A stretch of 64,000 bases of DNA from Spirochaetia bacterium (GTDB taxonomy: Bacteria; Spirochaetota; Spirochaetia; SZUA-6; Bin103), in the NCBI GenBank assembly GCA_965215345.1, contig CBDCDL010000002.1:2250605-2314604 (forward strand). The letters run 5' to 3'. Every line of letters begins with the position of its first letter. The first letter of the stretch is position 1. The notes under the pieces are model-generated. The model saw only the letters and a program-made list of their open reading frames with translations. It had not been told where the DNA came from and did no database searches. Below, in pieces: positions 1 to 20,107 of this stretch. The position numbers and the translations under genes are program-made.

Positions 1-1561
1 TTCCGTGGACCTCCACCCGCGTCGGGTGCCAAACGATCAGATGGGACTCATCTTCGAGAACCTGATCCGCCGTTTCAACGAGCTGGCGAACGAGACTGCC
101 GGAGACCACTTCACGCCGCGCGAGGTGATCCGGCTCATGGTGAGCGTGCTGTTCATCCATGACGACGACCTGCTGGCCACGCCGGGCGTCGTGCGCAAGC
201 TGCTCGACCCGGCCTGCGGCACGGGCGGCATGCTGGCCGAGGCGCAGAGCTATCTGCGTGACCACCATCCGCAGGCCAGGCTCTACGTCTATGGGCAGGA
301 CTACAACAAGCGCGCCTACGCCACGGCCGCGTCCGACATGCTGATGAAGGAAGTGAGTCACAACGGCGGTGACGACGACAACGTACGCTTCGGCGACAGC
401 CTTACCGAGGACCGGTTCGAGGGAGAAACCTACGACTACTTCCTTACCAACCCCCCGTTCGGCGTCGACTGGAAGCGGCAGCAGAGCGAGGTCAAGCGCG
501 AGCACGCGCAGCGGGGCTTCGCCGGCCGCTTCGGCGCCGGACTGCCGCGCGTAAACGACGGATCGCTCCTGTTCCTGCAGCACATGGTGGCCAAGTTCGA
601 ACCCGTGCGCCCGGACGAGCACCGGCACGGCTCGCGGCTCGCCATCGTCTTCAGCGGCTCGCCGCTGTTCACGGGCGGCGCCGGCTCCGGTGAGAGCAAC
701 ATCCGGCGCTGGATCATCGAGAACGACTGGCTGGAAGCCATCATCGCGTTGCCGGAGCAGATGTTCTACAACACCGGCATCGGCACGTACGTGTGGATCG
801 TCACCAACCGCAAGGAGAAGCGGCGCCGCGGCAGAATTCAACTCGTCGATGCACGCGACCTGTGGACGCCAGGCGGCAGCGCGGAGAGCCGACGCAGCCT
901 CGGCGACAAGCGCCGCCACCTCGCCGACGATCAGATTGACGAGATCGTCCGGCTGTACGGTCGATTCGAGGACGAAGAGCGCTGCAAGAGCTTCCGCAAC
1001 AGCGACTTCGGGTATACTCGGGTCACCGTGGAGCGCCCCCTGCGCCTGCGCTATCAGATGACGCTGGACGCGATGGAGCGGTTCCTGGACGTCTGCCCCG
1101 AATTGCTCGACGACGTACAGGCCATCGACCAAGCTCTGGGTCGGGAACCTCAGGACGACTGGAACATCGTGTCGCAACGGATCGGCGCCCTGCTGCGCGA
1201 ACGCCGGTCACGCTGGAAGAAGCCCCAGCACAAGCTGTTCCGGGAGGCGTTCACCGCCAAGACTCCGCAGGCCGCGCCGGTCAGGAACGACCGCGGCGAC
1301 GGCTTCGAGCCCGACCCTGCGCTGCGCGACTTCGAGAACGTACCGCTCGCCGAGGACGTCGACGCCTACTTCGAGCGCGAGGTGCTCCCGCACGTCCCCG
1401 ACGCCTGTCTGGACCGCACCAGGGACAAGGTCGGGTACGAGATCAACTTCAACCGCCACTTCTACCGGTACACGCCGCCGCGACCGCTGGAGGAAATCGA
1501 CGCGGATCTGAAGCAGGCGGAAGAGAGGATCATCAGGTTGTTGCGAGAGGTCACCGCGTGA
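1..1561 (+). CDS. hsdM: Type I restriction-modification DNA methyltransferase subunit HsdM, 5'-truncated at the window edge
   Basis: The ORF runs in-frame from the window start. It has an N6-adenine MTase motif I (LLDPACGTGGML) and motif IV (LTNPPFGVDW). The C-terminal region is typical of HsdM and is followed by hsdS. Confidence 0.9.
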   Translation, partial: SVDLHPRRVPNDQMGLIFENLIRRFNELANETAGDHFTPREVIRLMVSVLFIHDDDLLATPGVVRKLLDPACGTGGMLAEAQSYLRDHHPQARLYVYGQDYNKRAYATAASDMLMKEVSHNGGDDDNVRFGDSLTEDRFEGETYDYFLTNPPFGVDWKRQQSEVKREHAQRGFAGRFGAGLPRVNDGSLLFLQHMVAKFEPVRPDEHRHGSRLAIVFSGSPLFTGGAGSGESNIRRWIIENDWLEAIIALPEQMFYNTGIGTYVWIVTNRKEKRRRGRIQLVDARDLWTPGGSAESRRSLGDKRRHLADDQIDEIVRLYGRFEDEERCKSFRNSDFGYTRVTVERPLRLRYQMTLDAMERFLDVCPELLDDVQAIDQALGREPQDDWNIVSQRIGALLRERRSRWKKPQHKLFREAFTAKTPQAAPVRNDRGDGFEPDPALRDFENVPLAEDVDAYFEREVLPHVPDACLDRTRDKVGYEINFNRHFYRYTPPRPLEEIDADLKQAEERIIRLLREVTA

Positions 1562-1621
1562 ATCTTCCGTTTCCTTGCAAGAGAGGATAGGCACGGCTCC
1601 CGAGCCACCCGAGGTGAGCAC

Positions 1622-2062
1622 ATGAACCCGGAATCATTTCTCCGTCTGCGACTGGTCGGCGCGCGTTTCGAAGGACACTCCGTCCCGCTGACGTTCCTGA
1701 AGGACATCGGCGCACAGGTCGACGATCTGCGGCTGGTCGAGGACGGTTGGCTCGAAGGAGGGGGTAGAGCGCCAGCGGGGACGGGGCTCGACTGTCTGCT
1801 TGACGTCTTCGACCAGCACTATCCCGACGAGGCACCGCTGCCACATCTCTATCCGACCGAGACGGGAGGGGTTCAGGCCGAGTGGTCTCTGGGATCGCGC
1901 GAAATCACGCTCGAGGTGGATCTCGAGACTCATGACGGTGAATGGCACGTACTCGACATGCAGTCCGGAGATATGCAAGAGCGCGTGCTTGACTATGGCA
2001 GTGATGAGGCATGGAAGTGGCTGGTGGAGCAGATCCATGCGTGTGACCAGGACAGCCCATGA
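1622..2062 (+). CDS. Hypothetical small acidic protein (146 aa) located between hsdM and hsdS
   Basis: ATG start with a GAGGTGAG RBS 5 nt upstream. The composition is protein-like and GC3-rich. I recognise no motif. Confidence 0.5.
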   Translation: MNPESFLRLRLVGARFEGHSVPLTFLKDIGAQVDDLRLVEDGWLEGGGRAPAGTGLDCLLDVFDQHYPDEAPLPHLYPTETGGVQAEWSLGSREITLEVDLETHDGEWHVLDMQSGDMQERVLDYGSDEAWKWLVEQIHACDQDSP

Positions 2063-2207
2063 CTCCCGAATCCCGCTGCTCCGGCAGGTCAATAACCGTC
2101 ACCTCCGGCATCGTCGCGAAGCGCGTAACCACTCGCCGCCATCAGGATTCTGTCTGGACTGGCCGCTCTGCGGCCGATCCTCCAAACCTTCAAACGGACT
2201 CCCTTGA

Positions 2208-3620
2208 ATGAGCGCCGCGGAATCGCTATGTCCAGGTCGAGTCGTTCCTGGAGTCGCTGTGTCCGTCGATTACCAGCCGCGTGACTTCGTGAAGCGTCTC
2301 GGCTGGACTAACACACTTCCCGATGGATGGAAGCCTAAGCCACTGCGCGCCGCGGTGTACTGTGTAGTCAGCAACGTCGACAAAGTAAAGGTCGATGGAG
2401 AAAGCCCAGTACAGCTATGCAACTACACGGATGTCTACCACAATGAGTTCATTAGACCTGGATTGGACTTTATGCGAGCTACGGCATCACAAGCAGAAAT
2501 CGCACGCTTCGCGCTGTCCGTGGACGATGTTGTCATCACGAAAGATTCGGAAGCGTGGGATGACATCGGCGTACCTGCACTCGTCGTTGAAACATTGGCT
2601 GACTTGATATGCGGCTATCACTTGGCGTTGCTACGTCCACGCAAGGACGTCATTGATGGGGCTTTCCTGTTCCGATGTCTTCAGGCGAAGCCAATCCAAG
2701 TACAGTTGGCGTTGTCGGCAAACGGGGTTACTCGCTTTGGGCTACCGAAGTCCGCGATCGGGGCAGCAGTCGTGCCTGTGCCGCCGCTGGCTCGACAGCG
2801 CGCGATCGCCAAATATCTTAACCGTGAGACGGCGCGGCTAGATGCGCTGGTAGCGGAAAAGGAGCGGTTGCTGAGCCTGTTGGAGGACAAGCGCCGCGCG
2901 CTTGTGACGCGTTCCGTCCTGCGCGGAGCGGAGCCTCGCGTGACGCTGCGTGACTCCGGCATTCCACGGGCGGGGGAGATCCCGATCCATTGGCAGACGA
3001 GACGGCTACGGTTCCTCGTACACCGTATCGAACAGGGCTGGAGTCCGGAAGCTCACGATCGCATGCCAGCAGTCGATGAATGGGGTGTCTTGAAACTCAA
3101 TGCGGTCAACCGCGGACGTTTCGACGCAACCGCGACAAAGACACTTCCGCCCAATAGGGAACCTTCCGTATTATTCGAAGTAAGACCGGGCGACGTTCTC
3201 GTGACTCGTTCCAATACGCCATCCTTGGTCGGCGATGCATGCTACGTGGAAGCTACGCGGGCGAGATTGATTCTATCGGACCTCATTTACCGATTGACGG
3301 TGCGGTCTGAGTTGATTGACGGAAGATTTCTGGTGTACTTTCTGACGCTTCCGACCGGTAGAAGTCAGATTGAGCGAGATGCCCGTGGTACCAGTGCCTC
3401 CATGGTAAAGATTTCTCAGGAACACATCAGGAACTGGCGGGTGCCAGTACCACCCGTAGAAGAACAGCGGGAGATAGTCGCGGAGATTGTATCCACGACA
3501 ACGGTGATCGACCAGATTGAGACCGCTACGAATCGCTCCATCGCGCTCCTGAAAGAGCGCCGCTCCGCTCTGATCGCCGCCGCCGTGACGGGACAGATCG
3601 ACGTTGGTGGCGCAGCATGA
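2208..3620 (+). CDS. hsdS: Type I restriction-modification specificity subunit HsdS with two target-recognition domains
   Basis: N-terminal ...LPDGWKP... motif. Central and C-terminal conserved coiled-coil repeats (ARQRAIAKYL...LDALVAEKERLLSLLEDKRRAL; VEEQREIVAEIVSTTTVIDQIETATNRSIALLKERRSALIAAAVTGQI). GC is lower than in the flanking genes, as is typical for hsdS. The exact start is uncertain. Confidence 0.85.
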   Translation: MSAAESLCPGRVVPGVAVSVDYQPRDFVKRLGWTNTLPDGWKPKPLRAAVYCVVSNVDKVKVDGESPVQLCNYTDVYHNEFIRPGLDFMRATASQAEIARFALSVDDVVITKDSEAWDDIGVPALVVETLADLICGYHLALLRPRKDVIDGAFLFRCLQAKPIQVQLALSANGVTRFGLPKSAIGAAVVPVPPLARQRAIAKYLNRETARLDALVAEKERLLSLLEDKRRALVTRSVLRGAEPRVTLRDSGIPRAGEIPIHWQTRRLRFLVHRIEQGWSPEAHDRMPAVDEWGVLKLNAVNRGRFDATATKTLPPNREPSVLFEVRPGDVLVTRSNTPSLVGDACYVEATRARLILSDLIYRLTVRSELIDGRFLVYFLTLPTGRSQIERDARGTSASMVKISQEHIRNWRVPVPPVEEQREIVAEIVSTTTVIDQIETATNRSIALLKERRSALIAAAVTGQIDVGGAA

Positions 3621-4834
3621 GAGTCGCGCGCCTCAAACTCGCCAACGTTCGGTCGGTCAAGGCCGCCGAGTTCCATTTCCGTCCAGGCATCAACCTGATC
3701 GTGGGCGTGAACGGGGTCGGTAAGACGGGCGTACTCGACGCTCTGGGGGTGTGTCTGTCGTCCTTCATCAGAGACGCGTACGACCTTCGTACCGACGTCA
3801 AGAGATTCAGGCTTGACGACGTGCGTGTGGGATCGGCAGCGCTTTACGTCGAGTGCACGGTGCGGCACGGCGGGGCGAATTACGCCTGCGACGTGCACAA
3901 GAGGGTTGTGAGTTCCGGACACCAAGGTCCCGATACGCCACAGACTATCACGGGCGGAAGCCTGCATCCGCCGTCGCCAGCGGACCCGGGTGGAATGCCA
4001 CTCGCTGTGATCTTCTCTACGCGTCGGGCGCTCGCTTCTCGCAGGACTCCCTCGGAGACCGTCGCGGCCGGCGGAGTGGCCGCAGCATGCGCCGGAGCGT
4101 TCGCCAATCGAGATCTGCAGCTCAACGAGTTTGCGCAGTGGATGCGGGCGCGACAAACCCTTGCGGCGGAACGGCCGGCTGCCGGGGACGTCCTGACCAC
4201 GTTCGCGGAAACGGTGGCACGATTCCTTCCCGGCTATTCGAACTTCCGGGTCGACGGGGACAAGCGCCCGGAACTGCTGATCGATCATGGCGGCATGGCG
4301 CTCAAGGTGAGCCAGCTTTCAGACGGCGAACGCGGCATGCTGGCCATGGTACTCGACTTGACGCGCAGACTCGCCCAAGCCAATCCGGCCCTGACAGACC
4401 CCGGCGCCGAAGCGGAGGCGGTCGTTCTGATCGACGAGATCGACCTGCATCTGCACCCGCAATGGCAGCGGCAGATCGTGCGCAATCTGACAACAGCGTT
4501 CCCCCGCTGCCAGTTCATCGCCACGACCCATTCCCCTCAGATCATCGGCGAGGTCGAACACGACCGCATCCACATCATGGCCGACGGCGAGGTCTACTCA
4601 CCGACACACTCGTTCGGCGTCGACTCCAGTCGAGTTCTGGAAGAGGTCATGGAAGCGGATCCGCGGAATAGCGAGGTCAAGGACCTGCTTTCTCGAGCGT
4701 CTCGCTCGATCGACAGGGAGCGCTTCGAGGAGGCGCGAGAACTGTTGGGCAGACTCGATGATCGGCTTGGCGACGATGACCCCGATGTGACTGGGCTGCG
4801 GACCCTTCTCGCGTTCATGGAGGGCGGGGATTGA
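3617..4834 (+). CDS. ptuA: ABC-type (AAA_15/21-like) ATPase, Septu PtuA-like
   Basis: Walker A (GVNGVGKTG), ABC signature/Q-loop-like LSDGERGML, Walker B (VVLIDEIDLHLHP) and an H-loop region (IATTHSP). The ATGA start/stop overlaps hsdS. It is immediately followed by an HNH protein. Confidence 0.6.
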   Translation: MRVARLKLANVRSVKAAEFHFRPGINLIVGVNGVGKTGVLDALGVCLSSFIRDAYDLRTDVKRFRLDDVRVGSAALYVECTVRHGGANYACDVHKRVVSSGHQGPDTPQTITGGSLHPPSPADPGGMPLAVIFSTRRALASRRTPSETVAAGGVAAACAGAFANRDLQLNEFAQWMRARQTLAAERPAAGDVLTTFAETVARFLPGYSNFRVDGDKRPELLIDHGGMALKVSQLSDGERGMLAMVLDLTRRLAQANPALTDPGAEAEAVVLIDEIDLHLHPQWQRQIVRNLTTAFPRCQFIATTHSPQIIGEVEHDRIHIMADGEVYSPTHSFGVDSSRVLEEVMEADPRNSEVKDLLSRASRSIDRERFEEARELLGRLDDRLGDDDPDVTGLRTLLAFMEGGD

Positions 4835-5475
4835 GAGGCATCACGAAAGGTGCCGAACCGGCCAGCCTGACCACACATCGCCGGACTCCGCACGGCGACT
4901 ACGACAATTACCCCGACAAGGACACGCTTCGGGTCATGCTGGCGAACGAACAGCGGGGGCTGTGCTGCTACTGTATGGGGCGGATACGCAGTGACTCGAT
5001 GAAGGTCGAACACTGGAGATCCCAGAGTCGGTTTCCCAAAGAACAGCTCGACTACGGGAACCTTCTCGGCGCCTGCCGGGGAGGAGAAGGGCAGCCGCGA
5101 TCCTCGCAGCATTGCGACACGCGCAAAGGCGATAGCGATCTGCGGTGGAATCCCGCGAACCGGAGTCACGCGATCGAGGAGCGGATCTACTACGAGTCGG
5201 ATGGTGGCATCGGATCCGACGACGCGAATTTCAACGCACAGCTCGACGAAGTGCTCAATCTCAACCTACCGGTGTTGAAGAATAGCCGGAGACGGATCCG
5301 CGAAAGGGTCCTCGAGTGGTGGAAGATGGAGAAGGGACGCCTTCGAGGTCCGGTGCCGCGCGAGCGATTCGAAAAGCAGCGCGCGCGGCGGGTCGTCGGC
5401 GCCGGCGACCTGGAACCCTATTGCCAAGTCGCTGTCTGGTGGCTCGATCAGCGCCTGAAAAGGATGGCTGCGTGA
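4831..5475 (+). CDS. ptuB: HNH endonuclease-family protein, Septu PtuB-like
   Basis: The TTG start overlaps the ptuA stop (TTGA); an alternative ATG lies at 4933. The Cys/His motif (CCYCMG...VEHWRSQS...HCDTRKG) is consistent with a TIGR02646-type HNH. The stop overlaps the hsdR GTG start. Confidence 0.55.
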
Positions 5476-8400
5476 GCGATCACCGTCATTCGGAGTCCGC
5501 GTTCGAGACGGTGATCGAAGCGCACCTGCTGGCGAACGGATACGTCTCCGTGCTGGGCGAAGCGTTCGACCGGGAACGAGCGATCTTCCCGGATACCGTG
5601 CTCAGCTTCATCCGCGGGACGCAGCCGAAGGAATGGGCGAAGCTCGAAGCGCTGCTCGGGGCGCAGACCGACGAGCAGGTCCTGACCGATCTGTGCAAAT
5701 GGATGGACACTCACGGCGCTCTGGCGACGCTCCGGCACGGGTTCAAGTGCTACGGCAGGACTCTGCATGCTGCGTTCTTCAGGGCGGCGCACGCGTTGAA
5801 CCCGGAGCTGGACGCGCAGTACGCCGCCAACCGAGTCGGCATCACGCGGCAACTTCGCTTCTCGCCGCACTCGGAGCAATCGGTTGACGTGACGCTGAGC
5901 GTCAACGGGATACCGGTCGCAACGCTCGAGTTGAAGAACCCGCTCACAGGGCAGACGGTGGAAGACGCCCGCCGACAGTATCGCGAGGACCGCGACCCGC
6001 GCGTGCCTGTGTTCGCCTTCAAGCGGCGCACGCTCGTCCACTTCGCGGTGGACACCGAGTCGGTGCTCATGACGACGCGCCTCGCCGGCAACGCGACCCA
6101 CTTCCTTCCGTTCGACCGGGGATGCGACGGCGGCGCCGGCAATCCTCCCGATCCGAACGGGCGCAGCTATCGCACCTCGTACCTGTGGGAGGAGGTGCTG
6201 CAGCGCGACAGCCTGCTGGACCGCCTGGCGCGTTTCGTCCACGTGCAGGTGGACCAGAAGCGCGACGAGCGGGGACGCAAGATGAAGGTCGAGACGATGA
6301 TCTTCCCCCGCTACCACCAACTGGAAGCGGTGCGCCTCCTGGTGGCTGCCGCGCGCCGCGAAGGCGTCGGGCACAACGCCTTGGTCGAGCACTCCGCGGG
6401 CAGCGGCAAGAGCAACACCATCGCGTGGCTCACGCATCGCCTGGCTTCGCTGCACGACGCGGACAACGCCCGCGTGTTCGACAGCGTGATCGTGGCGACC
6501 GACCGCGTGGTGCTCGATCAGCAGCTTCAGGACACCATCTACCAGTTCGAGCACAAGCGCGGCGTCGTGCAGAAGATCGACGAGCGCTCGCGGCAGCTCG
6601 CGGAGGCGTTGGAGAGCGCGGTGCCGATCGTCATCACGACGCTGCAGAAGTTTCCCTACGTGTCTCGCCAGCTTCTCAGGATGGCCGAGGAACGGGGCAC
6701 GGAGGCGACGGGCGTGCTGCCGACCCGCCGCTGTGCCGTGATCATCGACGAAGCGCACAGCTCCCAGGGAGGCGAAACCGCGACCGCGCTCAAGGGGGTG
6801 CTGGGCGGCGAGGAGCTGCGCGCGGAAGCGCGGAAGCGCGCGGCCGAGGAGGGCCTGGAAGGCGAGCACGCCCAGGAGCTGTTTCTCGGTATGGCCAGGC
6901 GCGGCCGGCTCCCCAACCTGAGCTTCTTCGCCTTCACTGCGACGCCAAAGCACAAGACGTTCAAGGTCTTTGGGCGCGGAGGCATGCCCGTCCATCGCTA
7001 CACCATGCGCCAAGCGATCGACGAGGGGTTCATCCTCGACGTCCTGCGCCACTACACCAGCTACGTCACCTACTACAAGCTGCTCAAGGCGTGCGCGGAA
7101 GATCCCCACGTGGAGCGGAAGCCGGCAGCCAGGGCGCTCGCGCGCTTTCTGCGACTGCACCCGCACAACATCGCGCAGAAGACCGAGATCATGGTCGAGC
7201 ACTTCAACGCCGTCACCCGCCACAAGATCGGCGGCCGCGCCAAGGCGATGGTGGTGACCGGATCGCGACTGGAGGCGGTGCGCTACAAGCAGAGCTTCGA
7301 CCGCTACATCGAACGGAAGGGATATCCGATCAAGTCGCTGGTAGCCTTCTCGGGCGTGGTGGAAGACGACGATGTCGCCGGCGTGACCTACACTGAGGAG
7401 CAGATGAACGACGGCGTGCGCGAGAAGGAGTTGCCGGAGCACTTCGCCACGCCCGAATATCAGGTCCTGCTGGTGGCAGAGAAGTACCAGACGGGTTTCG
7501 ATCAGCCGCTGCTGCACACGATGTACGTCGACAAGCGGCTTGCCGGCATCCAGGCGGTGCAGACCCTCTCCCGGCTCAACCGGACGCACGCGCTCAAGGA
7601 AGACACCTTCGTGCTCGACTTCGTCAACGACCGCGACGAGATCCGCGAAGCCTTCGAGACGTACTACGAAGGCGCCGCGATGGGCGCCGAGGTCGACCCC
7701 GCGCGGATGTACGAGATCAAGGGCGAGCTCGATGCGTCCGGCGTGTATCGCGCCGAGGAAGTCGAGCGCTTCTGCGCCGTGTACTTCAACCCCAGGCAGC
7801 GCCAGAGCGCACAGGATCATCAAGCGATGAACGCCGCGTTGGATCCGGCGGTGTCTCGCTTTGCCGAGTTCCTCAAGGAGGAGGAAACGGAGGCCGAGGT
7901 CTGGCGCGGCAAGCTGCACGCATTTCGCAACCTCTACGGGTTCCTGAGTCAGGTGATTCCCTACCAGGACTCCGACCTTGAACGGCTCTACGTCTTTCTC
8001 CGTCACCTTGGCGCAAAGCTGCCGCGGCGCCGCTCGCGGCCGGCCTACGACTTCGACGACGACGTGCGCCTGGAGTACTACCGCCTGCAGAAGATCAGCG
8101 AAGGCTCGATCGCGCTCGGCTCGGGTGACGCGCGCGCCCTGGATGGGCCGACCGAGGTCGGCAGCGGCGTTGCCCATGAGGAGTCGGTCCCGCTGTCCAG
8201 GCTCATCGATGTCGTCAACGACCGCTTCGGTACGGATTTCAACGACGCCGACCAACTCTTCTTCGAACAGATCGTCGAGGCCGCGGTAGCCGACGACGAG
8301 CTGCGTCAGACCGCGGCTGTCAATCCCGAAACGAAGTTCGAGCTGGTGTTCAAGAGCCTGATCGAGCGTCTGTTCGTAGAGCGCATGGACCAGAACGAGG

Positions 8401-9041
8401 AGATCTTCGTCCGCTACATGAACGATCCATCCTTCAAGGAAGTCGTGAGCGAGTGGCTGTCCTCGCAGGCGTACCAGCGGCTCCGGGACGCCGACCAGAG
8501 CGATGAGGAGCCGGAGGCCGAGGGCTTGCGAATCGTCGCAGGCCGGCTCGAAGACCGCTACGTCACCTGCGTGCCTCTGGTACCTCTTGCCGTGGCTGCG
8601 GGCGCGTTCGGCGATCCCCAGACCGTGCCGGACGAAGGCGAATGGGAATGGGTGGAAGTAGACACCGCGCGCCGGCTCCGCCCCGGCATGTTCGTCGCGC
8701 AGGTCACCGGCCGCTCCATGGAGCCTATGGTCCCTGACGGAGCGTATGCGTTGTTCCGCTCACCGGTGGAAGGCACGCGGCAGGGCAAGACCGTGCTGGT
8801 TGAGATGCGTGGCGCCATCGACCCGGAAACCGGCGAGCGTCACACGCTCAAGCGATACGAAAGCGAGCGAGTCGCCGCCGGCGATTCATGGCGGCATGAG
8901 AAGATCACCCTGAAACCGATGAATCCCGAATTTGATCCCATCGTCATCACCGGCGAGGAAGAAGGAGACCTGACCGTCGTGGCGGAGTTGGTCGAAGTAC
9001 TTCTCGTGCCCTCCGTTTCAGACGTGGCTGTTCAACCGTGA
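5472..9041 (+). CDS. hsdR: Type I restriction enzyme R subunit HsdR with a C-terminal LexA-like S24 peptidase domain fusion
   Basis: The GTG at 5472 overlaps the ptuB stop. The long in-frame ATG at 5316 was rejected because it overlaps ptuB. The N-terminus is HsdR-like (HFLPFDRGC...[13 protein letters not shown]). It has an SF2 helicase core and the conserved HsdR C-terminal helical domain. A further ~150 aa then resemble the LexA/UmuD C-domain (see findings). Confidence 0.85.
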
Positions 9042-9086
9042 ACAAGCCGTTCGTCATTCTTCGAATTTCTATAGCGAGGATTCGGT

Positions 9087-10784
9087 GTGCTGTTGAGTAG
9101 AGCAAGGGTGCGCAATTTCCGTTGTATCAAGGACCTTAGCGTTGACCTTGAGGACATGACGGTACTCATCGGTGAGAACAATACCGGCAAGACCGCGTTT
9201 CTCGACGCTGTTCGCATCTGTCTCAGCCAGCTTCGACCGCGGAGTGGCCGCCTGTTTCATGAATATGATTACCACCTGGGGGACGATGAGGCGACTCCAG
9301 CCGGCGCGGAACCCATAGTGATCGAGCTGTTCTTCGTAGAGCCCCAGCCCGAATCGTGGAGCGACGACATCGTCCGGGAGCTGGGCAACGTCGCGGTGCT
9401 CGGCGAGGATGATCGCTATGCCGTCACGTTTCGCCTCACTTCCGGCTTCGATCGGGATACCAACGACTTCAGTAGCGAATGGGCGTTCCTGGATGCTCAG
9501 CGGAACCCGCTCATCGGACCGGCGTCGTCTGCTGCGCAGCTCAATGCGTTGCAGCGGGTGGCTCCCGTGTTCTATCTCTCTGCGCTGCGAGATACGACCA
9601 CGCACTTTGCGCCTCGCGGACGGTTCTGGCGTAACTTCCTCTCGGAATCGAGTATCCCGGAACATGACCGACAACATCTTGAGCAGGCATTCTCCGAACT
9701 GAACGATCGACTCATCGCGGCACATCAGCCGCTCAAGGAAGTGCGTTCGAGACTCGAAGACGCGAAAAGAGTAATCGACTTCGGAACGGGTGACGCGGTG
9801 GGCATAGACGCGCTGCCCACCAAGCTGTTCTCGTTGCTGTCTCGCACGCAGGTCAGTCTGGCATCGCCCGCGGGCGCCAAGATCCCGGTAGATCGCCAAG
9901 GTGAGGGAACGCAGAGTCTGGCGGTCCTGCTCTTGTTCGGAGCGTTTCTGCGAAGCCAGCTATCGGATCTCGACTCGATTGCACAGCCGATTACTGCATT
10001 GGAAGAGCCGGAGGCCCATCTGCATCCGTCGGCGGTTCGCGCTCTGATGCAGGTCGTCAGGGATCTGCCGGGGCAAAAGCTCGTGTCCAGCCATAGTGGA
10101 GACCTTCTGGCAAGCGTGGACCCGCTGTCGGTGCGGCGCTTCGTCCGCCGTAGCGGCGGTATCGACGTTCACCACATTCAGCGCAATGCACTGGACGCTG
10201 AGGAGCTGAGGAAGTTCGACTTCCACGTACGCCGCAGCCGCGGGGAATTGCTGTTCGCGAGATGCTGGCTTATGGTTGAAGGGGAGACGGAGACCGTCCT
10301 GTTCGCCGGCGCGGCGGAGGCGCTCGATATGGATCTGGAGCGCTCTGGAGTTCGCACCGTGGAGTTCGGTCAAACGGATGTCGCGATGCTCGCGAAGGTC
10401 GCCAACGAGCTTGGAGTCCCGTGGTACTGTGTCGTCGACGACGATAGTGGGGCACGCACGTACGGCAACGCCGTGCGTGCGCAGCTCGGCGCCGCGACGG
10501 AAGGTGATCGCTTGACCCTTCCATACGAGAACGTGGAGATCTTTCTTTGCGAGCATGGGTTCGGAGATCTTTACGAGTCTCGTGTCTCGCAACAAAAGCC
10601 GGCACCGACTGCGCGAAATGGTACGCCAGAGTATTGGAGACAGGTGCTGGCTGCTATGCCTAATCGCTACAGCAAGCCGGCGATCGCTGTGGAGGCCGTG
10701 TTGACGATGAAGGCCGGCGAGATCCCGGTGCCAGAGACCCTGAAGAGGATCCTCGAAAAGGCTGTGGAACTGGGTAGCGAGTGA
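9087..10784 (+). CDS. gajA: OLD-family ATPase plus TOPRIM nuclease, Gabija GajA-like
   Basis: N-terminal ABC-type ATPase (RVRNFRCIKDLSVDL...LIGENNTGKTAFLDAV; EEPEAHLHPS). C-terminal TOPRIM with the acidic motifs (WLMVEGETE; CVVDDDSG). A UvrD-like helicase gene overlaps its stop. Confidence 0.7.
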   Translation: MLLSRARVRNFRCIKDLSVDLEDMTVLIGENNTGKTAFLDAVRICLSQLRPRSGRLFHEYDYHLGDDEATPAGAEPIVIELFFVEPQPESWSDDIVRELGNVAVLGEDDRYAVTFRLTSGFDRDTNDFSSEWAFLDAQRNPLIGPASSAAQLNALQRVAPVFYLSALRDTTTHFAPRGRFWRNFLSESSIPEHDRQHLEQAFSELNDRLIAAHQPLKEVRSRLEDAKRVIDFGTGDAVGIDALPTKLFSLLSRTQVSLASPAGAKIPVDRQGEGTQSLAVLLLFGAFLRSQLSDLDSIAQPITALEEPEAHLHPSAVRALMQVVRDLPGQKLVSSHSGDLLASVDPLSVRRFVRRSGGIDVHHIQRNALDAEELRKFDFHVRRSRGELLFARCWLMVEGETETVLFAGAAEALDMDLERSGVRTVEFGQTDVAMLAKVANELGVPWYCVVDDDSGARTYGNAVRAQLGAATEGDRLTLPYENVEIFLCEHGFGDLYESRVSQQKPAPTARNGTPEYWRQVLAAMPNRYSKPAIAVEAVLTMKAGEIPVPETLKRILEKAVELGSE

Positions 10785-12703
10785 CGATGCATGATACGGG
10801 CGCCATGAACGCGAACCAGAAGCGGGCGGTGGAGTGGAACGACGGACCGCTTCTGGTGCTGGCGGGTCCGGGATCGGGAAAGACGTTCGTTCTTACCATG
10901 CGTGTGGCGCGTCTGATCCGTGAGAACCCCGAAGCTCGGTTTCGCGTGCTGGGGCTCACGTTCACGACGAAGGCCGCGGACGAGATGCGCAGCCGTCTGG
11001 AAATGGTCTTGGGCGACGAGACAAGGAGAGCGCGTCTGACCACGTTTCATTCGTTCTGTGCCGAGGTGCTGCGCCAACACGGAAGTCATCTGGGACTGCG
11101 CCCCGACTTTGACATACTCGCTCGAGAAGCCGACCGCCTCCGCGTACTCGATGACGCTATCCACGGCAACAGTTCGTTGGACATGCCTGATGTTCCCGCC
11201 GATAGCGTTGTGCGAATGATCGATTACCTGTTCCGCGAAGGGCATGACGGGAACGCCGACACTCCTCTTCCTTTCTCGGGCTCCCCAAAGAAATGGATGG
11301 GTGCGGTCTACAGGACGTACCTGGACGCTCTGATTCGCAACAATCATCTGGACTACGGCGCACTGCTGGTTTCCTGCTTGCGCCTGTTTCGACAACGCCC
11401 CCGGATCGCCAAGCATTACCGCATAGTCTATCCTTACATCTGCGTCGATGAATACCAAGACACGAACAGGTGTCAGGATCGTCTGCTCCGGTTTCTCTGC
11501 CCGAGCGGCGACGCGAACCTCTTCGTCGTCGCCGATGACGATCAGATAATCTTCCAGTGGAATGGCGCCAGTCCCGCGCGTCTCGACGAGCTCCGCCGTG
11601 ATTACAGGATGCATGTCATCCAACTGCCGGACAGTTACCGGTGTCCTCCGGAAGTGATCGAGCTGGCGAACAGGCTCATTCGGTTCAACCTCGAACGATC
11701 GGCGATCAAGGAGCCGCTGAGATCGGCGGTCCCGGCGGGACGGGCCGATTCGATTCGCGTGCGGCGATTTCCTGATCAGTTGGCAGAGATGGCATGGATC
11801 GCCGACGACATGCGGTGTCGCGAACTGCGGCCCACTGAATGCGTGGTGCTGGGGCGCAGCGCAAAGCTCGTCGAGTCGGCCGCGGCGGCGTTGAGACATG
11901 CGCATTTCGTTCCGTACGTGATCAAGCGCAGGCAGGATTTCTACTCGCCCCCGCTGCGTTTCGTACAAGCGGCTCTGAGGCTCGCAATCGCACCACAGCA
12001 GAGCGACCAGATGCGGATCATGTGCAAGGCGTTCTTCGATCTGACGGGGGTCGACGTGCGGGTGGAAGATGCAGAGGCGGAAGGCGAAGCGTATGGCGGG
12101 GCGCTGCTAAGGGGTTTCCTGGAGGCGACGGAAGGAGTTTCCGCCGTAGTGATGGAGTCCGCGCCGCTGCTTGAAGCGCTGCATGACAAACTCGTAGAAC
12201 GGTTGGAGTACGGTGGATTCGTGGACGCGGTCTTCGAATGGTACCATGATCGTGTTCGGCCAAACGAGGTGAGCACGGAGCAACGTGATCTGGATGATGC
12301 TGAAGAGGAGATCGGTATCTGGAACGAGTTGAATCGGGACGTGTGTCGTCACGTTGGCGCGCCGACGTTGAGTCGATTCCTGCAGGAGATGGACCTTCGG
12401 CCGAAGGTGACTCCGCCGGGGCGGGACGCAATTCAGTGTTTGACGATTCACCTGGCGAAGGGAAAGGAATTCGAGCACGTCTACCTGGTAGGAATGGCGG
12501 AGGATCATCTGCCGTCGTATCACGCGAGACGGAAGGGTGCCAATAGTCGCGCGATCGAAGAGGAACGTCGAGAGTGCTTCGTCGGCATTACGCGCGCGCA
12601 CACCAGTCTGACACTCACCTACTCGGCATCTTACTTCGGCTGGCCCAAGGAACCATCGCGGTTCTTGAGCGAGATGGGGTTGGTCTCGATGGAGGCGCGC
12701 TGA
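10781..12703 (+). CDS. gajB: UvrD/PcrA-like superfamily 1 helicase, Gabija GajB-like
   Basis: ...NANQKRAVEWNDGPLLVLAGPGSGKT (Walker A) ...DEYQDTN... (motif II). The GTG start overlaps the gajA stop; an alternative ATG lies at 10805. Confidence 0.7.
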   Translation: MTMHDTGAMNANQKRAVEWNDGPLLVLAGPGSGKTFVLTMRVARLIRENPEARFRVLGLTFTTKAADEMRSRLEMVLGDETRRARLTTFHSFCAEVLRQHGSHLGLRPDFDILAREADRLRVLDDAIHGNSSLDMPDVPADSVVRMIDYLFREGHDGNADTPLPFSGSPKKWMGAVYRTYLDALIRNNHLDYGALLVSCLRLFRQRPRIAKHYRIVYPYICVDEYQDTNRCQDRLLRFLCPSGDANLFVVADDDQIIFQWNGASPARLDELRRDYRMHVIQLPDSYRCPPEVIELANRLIRFNLERSAIKEPLRSAVPAGRADSIRVRRFPDQLAEMAWIADDMRCRELRPTECVVLGRSAKLVESAAAALRHAHFVPYVIKRRQDFYSPPLRFVQAALRLAIAPQQSDQMRIMCKAFFDLTGVDVRVEDAEAEGEAYGGALLRGFLEATEGVSAVVMESAPLLEALHDKLVERLEYGGFVDAVFEWYHDRVRPNEVSTEQRDLDDAEEEIGIWNELNRDVCRHVGAPTLSRFLQEMDLRPKVTPPGRDAIQCLTIHLAKGKEFEHVYLVGMAEDHLPSYHARRKGANSRAIEEERRECFVGITRAHTSLTLTYSASYFGWPKEPSRFLSEMGLVSMEAR

Positions 12704-12718
12704 TACGCGTGCGGGAAA

Positions 12719-12937
12719 GTGATTGCGACGGAGTGGCGCCGGCACATAACTGTTGATCCCAGTATCTGTCATGGACGAGCGTGCATCACGGGCACACGCG
12801 TGCTGGTGACCACGATTCTCGACAACCTCGCTGCCGGACTGGATGCCGAGGAAGTCGCCAAGAGCTACCCGTCGATCAGTCGCGAATCGGTCGAGGCGGC
12901 GGTGTGCTACGCTGCGGACTTGGCTCGCCGTGTCTGA
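12719..12937 (+). CDS. DUF433-family small protein (antitoxin-like)
   Basis: 72 aa. ICHGRACITGTRVLVTTILDNLAAGLDAEEVAKSYPSISRESVEAAVCYA matches the DUF433 consensus (C.G.P.I.GTR..V..IL..L..G.s.eEI...YP.l....I.AAl.YA). Confidence 0.6.
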   Translation: MIATEWRRHITVDPSICHGRACITGTRVLVTTILDNLAAGLDAEEVAKSYPSISRESVEAAVCYAADLARRV

Positions 12938-13319
12938 ATCCGGATCGCGCTCGCTTCGCCTGTCGAAGCTCGACGCGCACGCGTGGGCGTCGGAGGCGTT
13001 GCTGTGCGTCTCGTGCGGTGAGGAGGTGACGGGCGATGGGGCGCGGATCAACGTCGCGGGCGCGCACCGGCATGACTTCTTCAACCCGCAGCGCGTCCAC
13101 TACGCGATCGCCTGCTTTGCCCCGGCTGACGGGTGCCGGACGGTGGGCGAGCAGACCGATCGCTTCACATGGTTCGCCGGGTACGCGTGGACGATCGCGC
13201 TGTGCCGGCGGTGCGGGACCCACTTGGGCTGGCGTTTCGTCTCCGCCGGGGGCGGCCACCGCTTCTTCGGACTGATCGAGTCGCGCCTGGTCCGTCTTGG
13301 GCAGGGTCGCGCCAACTGA
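12930..13319 (+). CDS. Cereblon-like CULT-domain protein (zinc-binding beta-tent)
   Basis: CxxC (LCVSCGEE) ... FFNPQRVHYAIACF ... TWFAGYAWTIALCRRCGTHLGWRF. This is nearly identical in pattern to human cereblon, [24 protein letters not shown], with the aromatic-cage Trp/Tyr and a second CxxC. The assumed start is a GTG overlapping the DUF433 stop by 8 nt. The frame is open from 12843, so the true start is uncertain. Confidence 0.6.
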   Translation: MSESGSRSLRLSKLDAHAWASEALLCVSCGEEVTGDGARINVAGAHRHDFFNPQRVHYAIACFAPADGCRTVGEQTDRFTWFAGYAWTIALCRRCGTHLGWRFVSAGGGHRFFGLIESRLVRLGQGRAN

Positions 13320-18002: not shown

Positions 18003-20107
18003 GTTAGCCCAAGTTTAACGGGCTGAAACATATCCTGCTACGGGTGCATAAATTAGAAGGTCTCATATCGGCGGGTGGCACTACATTCGCTGCGCAACTG
18101 GTGAGCATCGCTACTCTGCGACCACCGTCCTGATCCCACCGGGGGCCGGATCAGCTCCCAACGCATCGTAGATCGCACGCTGGTCTGGCTCGGCCTCGGT
18201 CGCCTTGCGCACGTGCAGGGTGCGACCGTCAGCACGGCGAAAGGTGGCCGTGACGCGCTGCTGGCCGGCGAGGATGCTGCGCACCGTGCGCCATGAGGCG
18301 TGCTCGCCGTGCTCGCGCAAGCGGCGTCGGATCACCTGCACCAACTGATAGGCCAGCACGGTAATGAACAGATGACCATTGGCGCGATCCGGCTTCTGGT
18401 GGAAGATCGGCCGCAGCCCCAGCTCGGACTTCAGGGATCGAAACACCGCCTCCAGATCGGTCAGCGTGATGTAGGTACGCCACATCGTCTCGGCATCCCA
18501 GTCGGTCTGGTTGCTGCGCAGGCAGTACACCCCCGGATGGGTCAGCTTCGAACCGGCAACCGGGCGTTGTTCCCACTTGATGGCGGTGGCCTTCTCGCCG
18601 CTCTTATCGGTAACCACCTCGATATGGTAATGCTGAGCCGCACCGCTGCTGTTGGTCTTCAGGCGCCCGATGCGCTGCCAGATCCTTTCGGTCTTCTTGT
18701 GCGTCCGCGGCCGAGACAGTCCTTCGTGCAGCTCCTGCAGGTGCTTCTCGAAGCGCTCGGTAGCCCGTTTCAGCATCGCCTGCTCCTTGCCGTGCCGAGC
18801 CTCCGAGTAGCAGTACAGGCGCACTTCGGCGCCGTCCTCCGACCGCACCATCTGCACCTGTATCTCCTGCCGTGAGGCCGTCTGCAGGCGCAGCGCCGCC
18901 TCGGCATCAAATCTTCGGGTGCGCTCGCGACTCACCGCCAAATACCGGTATCCCTGCTCCCGCAGCCATTGCAGATTCTTCTCGGTGGCCGCCCCGCAAT
19001 CCATCACGAGCAGCGCGTGGTCAGGCACCTGCAGGCGCTTGAGCACCCCTTGCAGGACATCCTGTTCGACGACATTGCCAGCCAATACCTCGCTGCGACG
19101 CACGAACCCGCTGCCGTCCAGCACCAGACCCAAGGTCAGCAGCGGACAATCGCTGCGCTTCTCCTTGGAATGACCGCGCTGGGCCAGCGGCTGATCTGCC
19201 GCCTCCCCCTCGAAATAGGAGTTGGTCAGGTCATATAACGTGACAGTCGTTCCCAGGCAGAACAGATCCGTCACTTGCTTGAACAGATGCTGTTCGATCG
19301 CCTGTTGCTGGCCGACCAGCGCGTCGGAGGCGCGGTACAACTGCATCATGCTCATGGTCTCGAAGTCCACCTGCAGCAGTTCGCCCAAGGCGCTGCACTG
19401 CTGCAACCAGCGATAGGTGGCCCGTTCGGAGCCGGGCGCGGCCATGCGGGCGATGATGGAGCCGACCGCCGCAGCGCGCTGCGGGCCGCTCAGACCCAAC
19501 CTGTTGAGCAACGGGATCAACTGCACCTGCTGCATGGCCCATAGGCCGACCTGTTCGACGCCGACGCTGCGTGGCCGCAGCAGTTGCAGAGAAGCGACGT
19601 CGACGCTGTGGAACTCGCTTTCGCCAGCGCTGTCCTCTGGAGAGGAGGCCGCGTGCAGCGGTACTTGACGGGCGATCAACTGCGCGGCGATCCGTTGTGC
19701 TTCCCGCTCGATGGGCGGGCGAATATCGGTGGACAGCAGCGCATCTTGGGGGCTTAGCAGTTGCTTGATGCGCGAGCACAGCAGCGGCCAATCGGCGTGA
19801 GGAAGCGAGAAGTGGCGGCCGAGATTGAGCAGAGTGCGCTGCCGGACGTGGGCGCCGCGGCGTTCAGAACGCACCAAGCGATAGGTAAAGTAGCGGTCGC
19901 CGTTGGCGGTGGCTCGGGTCTGAGTGCGGCGCACGAACATGGCTGACTGAAGGTAGATAGCCGGCAAGAGGCGGTCAATGGCCTCGCTGACTATTATGGC
20001 ACTACTTCGGCCGATCAGCCCATTTTGGAGGCAGAGCCCCCCATAGATTCGCGGAAATCACTCCAACTTCCTGAAATCGCCTGCGCGAGTGTTAAACTTG
20101 GGTTAGC
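18003..20107 (-). mobile_element. IS1634/IS4-family insertion sequence (~2.1 kb) with imperfect terminal inverted repeats
   Basis: Single 618-aa DDE transposase ORF (18111..19967). Terminal IRs GTTAGCCCAAGTTTAAC (18003-18019) and GTTAAACTTGGGTTAGC (20091-20107, reverse complement GCTAACCCAAGTTTAAC), matching 15 of 17 positions. The ends are lower-GC. Confidence 0.75.
18111..19967 (-). CDS. IS1634-family transposase
   Basis: 618 aa; the typical IS1634/IS4 DDE transposase length and sequence pattern (…YFEGE…, …SDCPLLTLGLVLD…). Confidence 0.75.
   Translation of the reverse strand: MPAIYLQSAMFVRRTQTRATANGDRYFTYRLVRSERRGAHVRQRTLLNLGRHFSLPHADWPLLCSRIKQLLSPQDALLSTDIRPPIEREAQRIAAQLIARQVPLHAASSPEDSAGESEFHSVDVASLQLLRPRSVGVEQVGLWAMQQVQLIPLLNRLGLSGPQRAAAVGSIIARMAAPGSERATYRWLQQCSALGELLQVDFETMSMMQLYRASDALVGQQQAIEQHLFKQVTDLFCLGTTVTLYDLTNSYFEGEAADQPLAQRGHSKEKRSDCPLLTLGLVLDGSGFVRRSEVLAGNVVEQDVLQGVLKRLQVPDHALLVMDCGAATEKNLQWLREQGYRYLAVSRERTRRFDAEAALRLQTASRQEIQVQMVRSEDGAEVRLYCYSEARHGKEQAMLKRATERFEKHLQELHEGLSRPRTHKKTERIWQRIGRLKTNSSGAAQHYHIEVVTDKSGEKATAIKWEQRPVAGSKLTHPGVYCLRSNQTDWDAETMWRTYITLTDLEAVFRSLKSELGLRPIFHQKPDRANGHLFITVLAYQLVQVIRRRLREHGEHASWRTVRSILAGQQRVTATFRRADGRTLHVRKATEAEPDQRAIYDALGADPAPGGIRTVVAE

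Follow-up and report, generated by a model that had tools for sequence, protein, structure and literature searches.

Restriction enzymes that depend on ATP, Type I among them, can kill their own host if methylation lags, as with DNA damage, recombination or a new host. To our knowledge, the safeguards that are understood act in trans only, through ClpXP for EcoKI and through Lon-like proteases in Pseudomonas, and we know of no mechanism for most restriction families. [quoted passage not shown]

For EcoKI (Type IA/IB HsdR), ClpXP removes HsdR post-translationally, which shields the host chromosome as damage or recombination produces unmodified sites (PMC11109961; PMC3874165). For the Type I HsdR of P. 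aeruginosa (iREN), Lon-like proteases inactivate HsdR, which avoids self-targeting of the hypomethylated genome (bioRxiv 10.1101/2024.10.21.619520). In LexA and LexA-like proteins, a ClpXP C-degron is embedded right beside the autocleavage site (PMC5742171; PMC10584840). In S. mutans IrvR, HdiR and S. aureus phage CI, autocleavage exposes a ClpXP C-degron next to the cut, after which the N-terminal fragment is broken down (PMC5742171, PMC10584840), and the LexA-like IrvR undergoes autocleavage without RecA (PMC7101444). The terminal Ala-Ala of a ClpXP C-degron is critical, being necessary yet insufficient, and the consensus is [LFYW][LAR]LAA (PMC10862746).

Here, we analysed a window of 64,000 nucleotides from a Spirochaetia bacterium, in which the gene for a Type I HsdR subunit continues in frame into a LexA-like S24 peptidase module. 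Full-text literature searches returned no description of an HsdR-S24 fusion, and major Type I and R-M reviews make no mention of S24 or LexA domains, in agreement with the impression given in a preliminary description of the sequence that no such fusion had been described.

RESULTS

Domain layout of the HsdR-S24 protein

The hsdR-S24 fusion gene occupies positions 5472..9041 of the + strand and encodes a product of 1189 aa as a single ORF, a length that agrees with those of related loci and homologs. The frame opened at 5472 has no stop until the TGA at 9039-9041, and the preliminary description was thus right that the HsdR frame runs on into the tail without a stop. Pfam analysis of the whole protein returned HSDR_N at residues 117-206 (1.9e-13), SWI2_SNF2/ResIII at 279-525 (SWI2_SNF2, 2.4e-26), T1R_D3-like at 662-711 and Peptidase_S24 at 1041-1172; it returned no HTH family, and the N-terminal partner of the module is HsdR.

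The HsdR core (residues 1-1005; 5472..8486, + strand) was delimited by the Pfam matches, the invariant motifs and the endpoints of S24-less orthologs. It contains the PD-(D/E)xK nuclease motif (D139, E153 and K155) and an SF2 motor with Walker A AGSGKS (309-314) and DEAH (426-429), all unchanged in 64/64 sequences, and a C-terminal helical domain ending at R1005 (nt 8486). The HsdR part looks functional as a Type I restriction subunit. It is followed by an acidic, hypervariable linker (residues 1006-1018; 8487..8525, + strand), recognised by a drop in identity and low pLDDT, and then by the LexA-like S24 peptidase module, predicted to be self-cleaving (residues 1019-1177; 8526..9002, + strand), which was defined by PF00717, Foldseek, hhalign and dN/dS. 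The conserved module begins at about L1019 (nt 8526), upstream of the position 8560 first given for its start.

The score against TIGR00348, the NCBIfam hsdR model, was 194.9 bits and did not reach the cutoff of 284.55. The PADLOC REase_I models covered only residues 113-738 of the product, and the best PDB sequence match of the HsdR was EcoR124I HsdR, with an E-value of only 5e-8. By sequence comparison, the HsdR of the window is a divergent lineage outside the well-studied IA-IE prototypes.

Operon and defence island

The hsdR gene is encoded together with hsdM and hsdS, and this arrangement is conserved in related loci. The Type I methyltransferase gene hsdM lies at 5..1561 (+ strand; Pfam N6_Mtase, 2.6e-52), with the part encoding its N-terminus beyond the window; a contig related at 96% encodes an HsdM of 660 aa with HsdM_N. 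The specificity subunit gene hsdS lies at 2208..3620 (+ strand; Pfam Methylase_S, NCBIfam type I S subunit). Among 80 related loci, hsdM was found upstream in 56 and hsdS in 60. Nested between hsdS and hsdR is a Septu system (3617..5475, + strand) consisting of ptuA (3617..4834; PADLOC PtuA, 1.3e-111) and ptuB (4831..5475; PADLOC PtuB, 2.8e-70), both also recognised by the NCBIfam PtuA/PtuB models, and the stop of ptuB and the start of hsdR overlap. The same nesting was seen in 29/80 related loci and on a Ketogulonicigenium vulgare plasmid.

Downstream of the fusion gene, a Gabija system (9087..12703, + strand) is encoded by gajA (9087..10784; PADLOC GajA, 7e-196) and gajB (10781..12703; PADLOC GajB, 1.4e-231). 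Gabija adjoins hsdR-S24 in only 2-3 of the 80 related loci, but is present in the 96%-related contig; it is part of the same defence island and lies outside the R-M operon. When the genes downstream of hsdR-S24 were compared in 69 loci, no conserved gene that might serve as a partner or trigger was found. Neither tRNA genes nor Rfam matches that might mark island borders were present within the window. The GC content of the island is low, and with this and the cross-phylum identity described below, the systems look horizontally mobile.

Family, fold and predicted catalytic residues of the S24 module

The Peptidase_S24 (PF00717) score was 30.2 bits for the whole protein and 35.9 bits for the tail alone, both exceeding the Pfam gathering score of 23.3. 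When the family profile was aligned by hhalign with E. coli LexA, using a LexA sequence identical to PDB 7b5g_A, the probability was 87.7% with an E-value of 3.4e-6. In this alignment Ser1082, the predicted nucleophile (GRSMEP; 8715..8717, + strand), is paired with LexA Ser119, and Lys1127, the predicted general base (TLKRY; 8850..8852, + strand), with LexA Lys156.

The scissile bond is predicted to lie between Ala1043 and Gly1044 (8598..8603, + strand), within [14 protein letters not shown], on the basis of its conservation across homologs and fusion partners; the codons are gcg (8598-8600) for Ala1043 and ggc (8601-8603) for Gly1044. The peptides and coordinates quoted in the preliminary description, including the Ala-Gly codons at 8598-8603, were exact. 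Agreement between the PLV...AAG segment and the PLVGRVAAG of LexA needs a one-residue indel, and hhalign puts the AAG one residue out of register. The distance from Ala1043-Gly1044 to Ser1082 is 38 residues, compared with 34 in LexA; S24 self-cleavers typically have an Ala-Gly or Cys-Gly bond some 35 residues ahead of the Ser.

The last 289 aa of the product were modelled with AlphaFold2, giving a mean pLDDT of 82.9, with the blocks of the S24 beta-core mostly between 87 and 95 and linker residues 1011-1016 below 50. In Foldseek comparisons of the model with the PDB, LexA, lambda CI and UmuD accounted for all of the top 27 matches, with signal peptidases coming next; the LexA match had an E-value of 4e-6 and a target-normalised TM of about 0.65. 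In the model, LAVAAGA forms a short helix, unlike the strand-loop of LexA. Sequence-only searches of the PDB, by phmmer with the tail and by hmmsearch with the family profile, found no S24 structure, and their sole matches were to RNA polymerase alpha at chance level (E about 0.3). Since even the profile search gave no S24 match, this S24 clade has diverged from the characterised members. The tail also has no model in NCBIfam or PADLOC. The module is predicted from these sequence and model data to be a catalytically competent S24 peptidase that carries its own Ala-Gly site.

Recurrence, conservation and selection

The same fusion was found at about 60 genome loci in at least 14 phylum-level groups, and these related uncut loci have stop-to-stop ORFs of about 1180-1300 aa. 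Among the top full-length database homologs, 120/120 carry the fusion (1166-1376 aa), and PF00717 had been precomputed for 114 of them. The core-S24 junction is also kept in hundreds of database fragments. With hundreds of independent sequences showing it, the fusion is far beyond chance. The tail recurs among HsdR homologs across phyla; what had been presented as a one-off fusion belongs to a large family, itself within a broader S24 clade associated with restriction.

Two trivial explanations were considered. Searching with the tail (C-terminal 289 aa) gave only proteins of up to 502 aa, which might have represented standalone tail genes; this was ruled out, as these matches reflect fragments or candidate selection, and with the full-length query 120 fusions were returned, each about 1185 aa long. 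Nothing was found in favour of an artefact in which a frameshift or overlooked stop merges hsdR with a lexA-like gene; it is refuted by the continuous fusion ORF in the independent 96%-identical contig, by the ~60 loci and by the 120 homologs, leaving it a negligible probability.

The positions of Ser1082 and Lys1127 are invariant in 67/67 aligned and in 120/120 full-length sequences. A1042 and A1043 are present in 67/67 sequences and G1044 in 66/67, and Ala-Ala-Gly is found in 118 of the 120 full-length homologs; the Ala-Gly site, Ser and Lys expected in the alignment are thus all near-invariant to invariant. Mean identity to 63 homologs was 79% for the core, 67% for the S24 module and 13% for the linker, and cross-phylum identity was 57-85% for the C-terminal 289 aa and 76-85% for the HsdR core. 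The median dN/dS of the S24 module was 0.155, versus 0.106 for the core, and the module is under purifying selection. The claim of a complete LexA/UmuD-type S24 module on HsdR is borne out by the HMM match, the predicted fold, the invariant residues, the purifying selection and the recurrence.

Orthologs lacking the module and other enzymes carrying it

An ortholog that lacks the module is encoded on plasmid pYP1 of K. vulgare (WP_013368424.1, NC_014621.1), with 75.9% identity over residues 1-1004. It is 1012 aa long and ends 7-8 residues past the last core helix, and the S24 module, the linker and any downstream S24 remnant are all absent at this hsdR. The plasmid operon has the same order, hsdM-hsdS-ptuA-ptuB-hsdR, and S24-less orthologs terminate at positions equal to residues 1002-1012. 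As the K. vulgare ortholog stops at the linker, the S24 module is an add-on that is dispensable for the HsdR core. This protein also offers a natural S24-less control in a cultured organism.

The same S24 clade (45-71% identity) was found at or near the C-termini of other restriction and defence proteins, namely Type ISP, MmeI-like, DEAD+MZB+REase, McrC, LlaJI, PLD/NgoFVII-like, HNH, ResIII and Schlafen-like helicase proteins; further carriers are single-chain R-M-S enzymes and one HsdS-like protein. The signature [AV]AAG...G[KRH]SMEP...TVKRY is kept in all partner classes, with the AAAG/VAAG cleavage motif preserved across fusion partners, and the module has shown itself portable among many putatively self-dangerous nucleases. 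No plain HTH-S24 repressor was found among 40 scanned members of the clade (0/40). This result, together with HsdR as the N-terminal partner, indicates that hsdR-S24 is not a LexA/CI-type repressor. What is new here is a restriction-associated S24 clade that spans many enzyme classes.

DISCUSSION

We propose that the S24 module would cut its own polypeptide between Ala1043 and Gly1044, most likely when it meets a RecA-ssDNA filament (RecA*) on a host chromosome that is broken or under repair. Cleavage would free a fragment of about 16 kDa and leave HsdR(1-1043) ending in ...PLAVAA-COOH (family consensus ...PLKAAA), a new end that would mimic a latent ClpXP C-degron, as LexA exposes at ...RVAA, and would also resemble the ssrA degron. 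HsdR would then be degraded and restriction would be off while host DNA is unmodified or damaged, an outcome amounting to cis-encoded restriction alleviation, an autoimmunity fuse.

The restriction-alleviation switch suggested in the preliminary description gains indirect support from the dispensability of the module for the HsdR core, its portability among nucleases, the lack of a dedicated partner gene and the LexA-like Ala-Ala C-degron that cleavage would expose. The steps of this proposal differ in strength. That self-cleavage occurs is likely. For RecA* as its trigger the chances are about even: the lack of a conserved downstream partner gene in 69 loci points to an intrinsic trigger or a housekeeping factor such as RecA*, although dependence on RecA* cannot be assumed, because RecA-independent self-cleavers of the IrvR type exist (PMC7101444). 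Inactivation through a degron is a tentative reading, to which we give somewhat less than even chances. For the window, the predicted new C-terminus reads LAVAA, and for the family consensus LKAAA, with Val or Ala at P3 and not Leu; the resemblance to the ClpXP C-degron consensus is in sequence only. Unmasking of a degron by cleavage would fit any N-terminal partner and would give the switch a partner-independent logic. Destroying the single-chain R-M-S or HsdS-like S24 fusions would cost methylation too, an observation that runs against the degradation model. Taken as a whole, the model of damage-triggered self-cleavage, degron exposure and HsdR destruction is possible but falls a little short of an even bet.

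Other readings share the cleavage and change what triggers or follows it. The module might be a self-cleaving off-switch that answers to something other than RecA*, with cleavage being slow or spontaneous, or set off by the state of the enzyme (stalled translocation or finished cleavage) or by another stress; such a switch might be a timer, capping the lifetime of the enzyme or delaying or limiting restriction upon entry into an unmethylated host. RecA-independent autocleavage is documented in IrvR (PMC7101444), no partner gene is conserved, and the systems look mobile, establishment in a new host being a real problem for R-M systems. An enzyme-state trigger, however, would need to be reinvented for each of at least 10 unrelated partners, and the nearest structural matches are the RecA*-responsive LexA proteins; we consider this reading rather unlikely. 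Cleavage could instead be an on-switch, in which the S24 module keeps the nuclease latent or mis-assembled until RecA* arising from phage DNA or infection arms it, in the style of UmuD to UmuD'. UmuD is indeed an S24 protein activated by cleavage, its RecA complex (8gmt) is among the fold matches, and many defence effectors stay latent before infection. R-M enzymes, though, already tell self from non-self through methylation. That the core works without the module is indicated by the S24-less ortholog, whose core is 76% identical. Autoinhibition would need partner-specific contacts, yet the partners are not related to one another, and the linker is disordered and hypervariable. An on-switch is therefore improbable.

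The remaining readings assign the module another task than self-processing. [quoted passage not shown] Unused Ser, Lys and Ala-Gly residues would decay, yet they are kept in 120/120, 120/120 and 118/120 homologs, respectively, and in all partner classes, and this conservation argues that proteolysis is in use and that the module is not a mere scaffold. With the catalytic and cleavage-site residues invariant, dimerisation by itself is distinctly unlikely as the role, and it may accompany regulated cleavage. It is also conceivable that the module acts in trans on another substrate, for instance an anti-restriction protein from a phage or some factor of the host; the related signal peptidases cut in trans, and in UmuD dimers one molecule cleaves the other. 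The strictly conserved LexA-like site at the canonical distance upstream of Ser is a hallmark of self-processing, and makes action in trans very improbable.

The self-cleavage model, if true, would have consequences beyond this locus. A built-in domain that senses damage and cleaves itself would account for restriction alleviation in many uncultured lineages and couple innate immunity directly to the SOS signal at the level of protein. Synthetic biology would also gain a compact, portable "cleave-and-degrade" tag. The further generalisation is that the whole S24 clade is a portable cis SOS fuse on at least 10 unrelated classes of restriction or defence nucleases and translocases across bacteria. 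The fuse would sense RecA*, a sign of self-inflicted or ongoing damage to the chromosome, cleave itself off and unmask an Ala-Ala ClpXP degron, and the enzyme would be destroyed. This reading, which would amount to a general and previously unrecognised control of restriction and autoimmunity, is doubtful.

Compared with the described restriction systems, HsdR-S24 differs in where the protease would reside. In EcoKI, a protease acts in trans on translocating HsdR, which has no self-cleaving domain, whereas here a cis S24 module is the proposed maker of the degron; the studied families are also only distantly related to the HsdR of the window. The P. aeruginosa iREN system likewise relies on separate proteases; it is triggered by temperature and lacks an S24 domain.

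The likeness to the S24 proteins lies in the module itself. The C-terminal domain of E. coli LexA (MEROPS S24; PDB 1JHE/1JHH/7B5G/8TRG) has the same fold and an aligned Ser-Lys dyad, and HsdR-S24 shares with it the PLV..AAG motif and an ENSEFKPIV-like C-terminal strand. Relative to LexA, HsdR-S24 is longer at three places: by one residue ahead of AAG, by 8 residues in the Ser-Lys interval and by 9 residues beyond Lys. Cleaved HsdR-S24 would end in ...[AV]-Ala-Ala, and LexA(1-84) ends in ...RVAA. Unlike LexA, with its winged-helix N-terminal domain, HsdR-S24 has a 1005-aa nuclease/translocase as the partner, and IrvR, HdiR and phage CI are small HTH repressors with no enzyme fusion. UmuD and lambda CI share the fold and the dyad with HsdR-S24 (fold matches 8gmt and 2ho0) and are both RecA*-stimulated; UmuD is activated when it loses its short N-terminal arm, and CI acts as a repressor. 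P2 is not Ala in UmuD or lambda CI, unlike the HsdR-S24 clade, which keeps x-Ala-Ala|Gly near-invariantly.

Reading frame and fold of the S24 tail

The hsdR-S24 gene lies on the + strand at 5472..9041. As claimed in the preliminary description, hsdR runs into its tail without a stop: the frame is uninterrupted from the GTG at 5472 to the TGA at 9039–9041 (1189 codons), and its start overlaps the stop of the upstream gene (4831..5475), an arrangement matching that of the related Ketogulonicigenium vulgare operon. Pfam placed HSDR_N at residues 117–206, SWI2_SNF2/ResIII at 279–525, T1R_D3-like at 662–711 and Peptidase_S24 at 1041–1172, the last (PF00717) scoring 30.2 bits in the whole protein and 35.9 bits in the isolated tail, above the gathering score of 23.3. 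The peptides and coordinates first described were exact, with the motif-predicted scissile bond Ala1043-Gly1044 at nt 8598–8603, Ser1082 at 8715–8717 and Lys1127 at 8850–8852, all on the + strand. The Walker A and DEAH motifs of HsdR and its nuclease motif (D139, E153, K155) were all invariant among homologs, so that the host HsdR enzyme looks active.

The proposed LexA-type nature of the tail was upheld when hhalign was used to compare the family profile with E. coli LexA (a sequence identical to PDB 7b5g_A), at a probability of 87.7% and E 3.4e-6. Ser1082 and Lys1127 were paired with LexA Ser119 and Lys156, and the cleavage-site segment matched GLPLVGRVAAG of LexA apart from a difference of one residue in length. 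In an AlphaFold2 model covering the C-terminal 289 residues, for which 50 homologs were aligned, mean pLDDT was 82.9, the beta-rich S24 part being mostly at 87–95 per 10-residue block; residues 1011–1016 were disordered, and the predicted cleavage-site region was drawn as a short helix. When this model was compared with the PDB by Foldseek, the best 27 matches were LexA, lambda CI and UmuD, followed by Type I signal peptidases (best match: E 4e-6, target-normalised TM about 0.65). Sequence-only PDB searches with the tail or family profile found no S24 structure, which indicates a divergent S24 lineage. We conclude that the tail is a genuine S24 domain.

Recurrence and conservation of the fusion

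A query of the final 289 aa, comprising the last helices of HsdR and S24, matched 988 proteins, the best 120 of which had 61–85% identity and ~95% query coverage, so that the HsdR/S24 junction was spanned. The full-length query matched at least 120 proteins of 1166–1376 aa with 76–96% identity, and PF00717 was precomputed in 114 of 120 full-length homologs among the matches listed. A genome scan with one genome per species yielded 244 relatives, and the best 80, which were kept, belonged to at least 14 phylum-level groups (Spirochaetota, Nitrospirota, Latescibacterota, Acidobacteriota, Pseudomonadota, Desulfobacterota, Myxococcota, Planctomycetota, Binatota, Methylomirabilota, Gemmatimonadota, Verrucomicrobiota, Elusimicrobiota, Bacillota and more). 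The stop-to-stop ORF was about 1180–1300 aa in ~60 loci uncut by a contig end, and a 96%-identical protein was encoded, with conserved gene order, in an independent 949-kb metagenomic contig. The homolog search first suggested for the tail thus reveals a phyletically recurrent fusion (~60 genome loci, at least 120 database homologs). Together with the independent contig, these continuous ORFs rule out a missed stop or frameshift, leaving an artefactual origin practically no chance. All of the best 80 loci were from metagenome-assembled genomes, and the exact fusion was found in no cultured host; the nearest cultured relative is K. vulgare, whose HsdR has no S24 tail.

Mean identity to the window protein over 63 full-length homologs was 79% in the core (residues 1–1005), 13% in the linker (1006–1018), 67% in the S24 module (1019–1177) and 7% in the final 12 residues. 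Among the invariant or nearly invariant S24 positions were C1033, P1035, P1038, L1039, A1042, A1043, G1044, F1046, W1060, G1080, S1082, M1083, P1085, K1127, Y1129, H1142 and N1151. Among the matches listed, the predicted catalytic Ser and Lys were present in all 120 database homologs and Ala-Ala-Gly in 118. The other two (P0201 and P0227) and 1 of 67 locus ORFs had Ala-Ala-Ala-Ser at the predicted scissile site with Ser and Lys retained, and may represent naturally occurring variants that cleave slowly or not at all. The median dN/dS (Nei-Gojobori, 1250 unsaturated pairs) was 0.106 for the core versus 0.155 for S24; both are under purifying selection. In the locus pairs L003/L059, L005/L009 and L053/L080, S24 dS was 3–5 times core dS (e.g. 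2.3 vs 0.47), which suggests that the module has been exchanged between lineages by recombination.

HsdR without the tail, and the module on other partners

The K. vulgare plasmid pYP1 carries an operon in the order hsdM-hsdS-ptuA-ptuB-hsdR. The HsdR it encodes shares 75.9% identity with window residues 1–1004 and terminates (...WLSSEAYRKLNHSLEDTPAD, then stop) at the exact point where the window linker starts, and no S24 remnant was found downstream. Matches to haloarchaeal plasmid HsdRs (Natronococcus, Halobacterium, Halorussus; ~49% identity) end at residue 1002–1008, and no S24 tail was seen in this tiny sample. Archaea lack a RecA/LexA-type SOS response. Their tailless HsdRs thus fit an SOS-linked role of S24, although the sample is tiny and the bacterial ortholog is tailless too. 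By these alignments, the module is an add-on to HsdR.

When the S24 module alone was searched exhaustively by HMMER against 1.84 billion cluster representatives, 1815 matched at E<=1e-3, 147 of them at E<=1e-30. Most of the best 150 had N-terminal regions with no relation to the HsdR core. In 40 of these 150 that were scanned with Pfam, the module lay C-terminal to its partner domains, mostly at the very end. The partners were Type ISP R-M enzymes, MmeI-like enzymes, DEAD helicase + MZB + REase proteins, McrC, LlaJI endonuclease, PLD/NgoFVII-like and HNH nucleases, ResIII helicases, one Schlafen-group-3 helicase and one HsdS-like protein; none of the 40 was an ordinary HTH repressor. Modules on other partners (P0243–P0389) were 45–71% identical to that of the window, and the signature [VFY]x-L-[KRQ]-[AV]-A-A-G-x-F ... 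G[KRH]SMEP ... TVKRY was retained whatever the partner, with the cleavage-site motifs AAAG (83), VAAG (12) and IAAG (5) recovered across the clade. Judged from sequence, the window module is a member of a distinct clade fused to restriction-associated proteins, an observation that reaches beyond the single hsdR-S24 fusion.

Genomic neighbourhood

The window begins inside hsdM (5..1561, +), and hsdS follows at 2208..3620 (+). Between them, a 146-aa ORF (1622–2062) matched only the C-terminal third (about 258–371 of 376) of the PADLOC candidate PDC-M32A (E 1e-41); similar ORFs occurred in 5 of the best 80 of 244 loci. A Septu pair (PtuA ATPase and PtuB HNH; 3617..5475), whose stop and start codons overlap its neighbours, is nested between hsdS and hsdR, as in 29 of these 80 loci and in K. 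vulgare plasmids; the gap serves as a recurring site for another defence system. A complete Gabija system (GajA OLD-type ATPase/TOPRIM and GajB UvrD helicase; 9087..12703) starts 45 nt downstream of hsdR-S24, an adjacency found in just 2–3 of the 80 loci and shared with the 96%-related contig. No conserved downstream gene was found among 69 loci. GC content was 59–65% in the defence island (1–13000) versus 70–75% in most of 14000–64000, consistent with horizontal acquisition. Local dips in GC coincide with two transposase genes, at 18111–19967 (-) and 57882–59522 (-), of which one has a DDE_Tnp_1 domain and the other belongs to the IS66 family. Housekeeping genes elsewhere encode a peptide-binding SBP_bac_5 protein, sulfite/nitrite reductase, acetyl-CoA synthetase and a transglutaminase-like protein; no tRNA genes or Rfam matches were found anywhere in the 64-kb window.

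Discussion

In the hsdR-S24 protein, a flexible linker joins a competent-looking HsdR to an S24 protease that looks competent too and includes its own predicted cleavage site, and we infer self-cleavage at Ala1043-Gly1044. The new HsdR C-terminus is predicted to be ...LAVAA in the window and ...LKAAA in the family consensus. Two papers (PMC5742171; PMC10584840, citing Neher et al. 2003) describe a ClpXP C-degron hidden immediately before the cleavage site in LexA and LexA-like proteins, and ClpXP C-degrons require a terminal Ala-Ala (consensus [LFYW][LAR]LAA; PMC10862746). Given this precedent and the predicted Ala-Ala end, we propose a feedback in which self-restriction or DNA damage would cause double-strand breaks, these would give rise to RecA*, which would trigger self-cleavage, and the exposed ...LAVAA end would lead to HsdR degradation, removing the nuclease. 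This whole chain, amounting to cis-encoded restriction alleviation, is put forward tentatively, as plausible rather than probable. A caveat is that single-chain R-M-S enzymes carry the clade module too, and degrading them would abolish their methylation.

The many unrelated partners, the lack of a dedicated partner gene and the closest likeness to LexA make RecA* the most economical trigger, and an output independent of the partner's structure the most economical output. An identical off-switch with a RecA-independent trigger or a timer is unlikely. That cleavage instead activates HsdR is rather improbable. A module for dimerisation only is doubtful to a slightly greater degree, the Ser and Lys being invariant and the predicted cleavage-site residues nearly so. 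A protease acting in trans is very improbable in a protein carrying its own predicted cleavage site.

PF00717 is already tagged on hsdR-S24 homologs in databases, where some fragments bear the name "S24 family peptidase". Full-text literature searches uncovered no account of a restriction enzyme with an S24 domain, and none appears in two comprehensive reviews (PMC3874165, PMC12707154), in agreement with the early impression that the fusion was undescribed. It is a combination of known kinds, a Type I R-M enzyme and an S24 self-cleaver. Restriction alleviation relies on ClpXP supplied in trans for EcoKI (PMC11109961) and on Lon-like proteases in P. aeruginosa (bioRxiv 10.1101/2024.10.21.619520), whereas the version proposed for the window HsdR would be encoded in cis.
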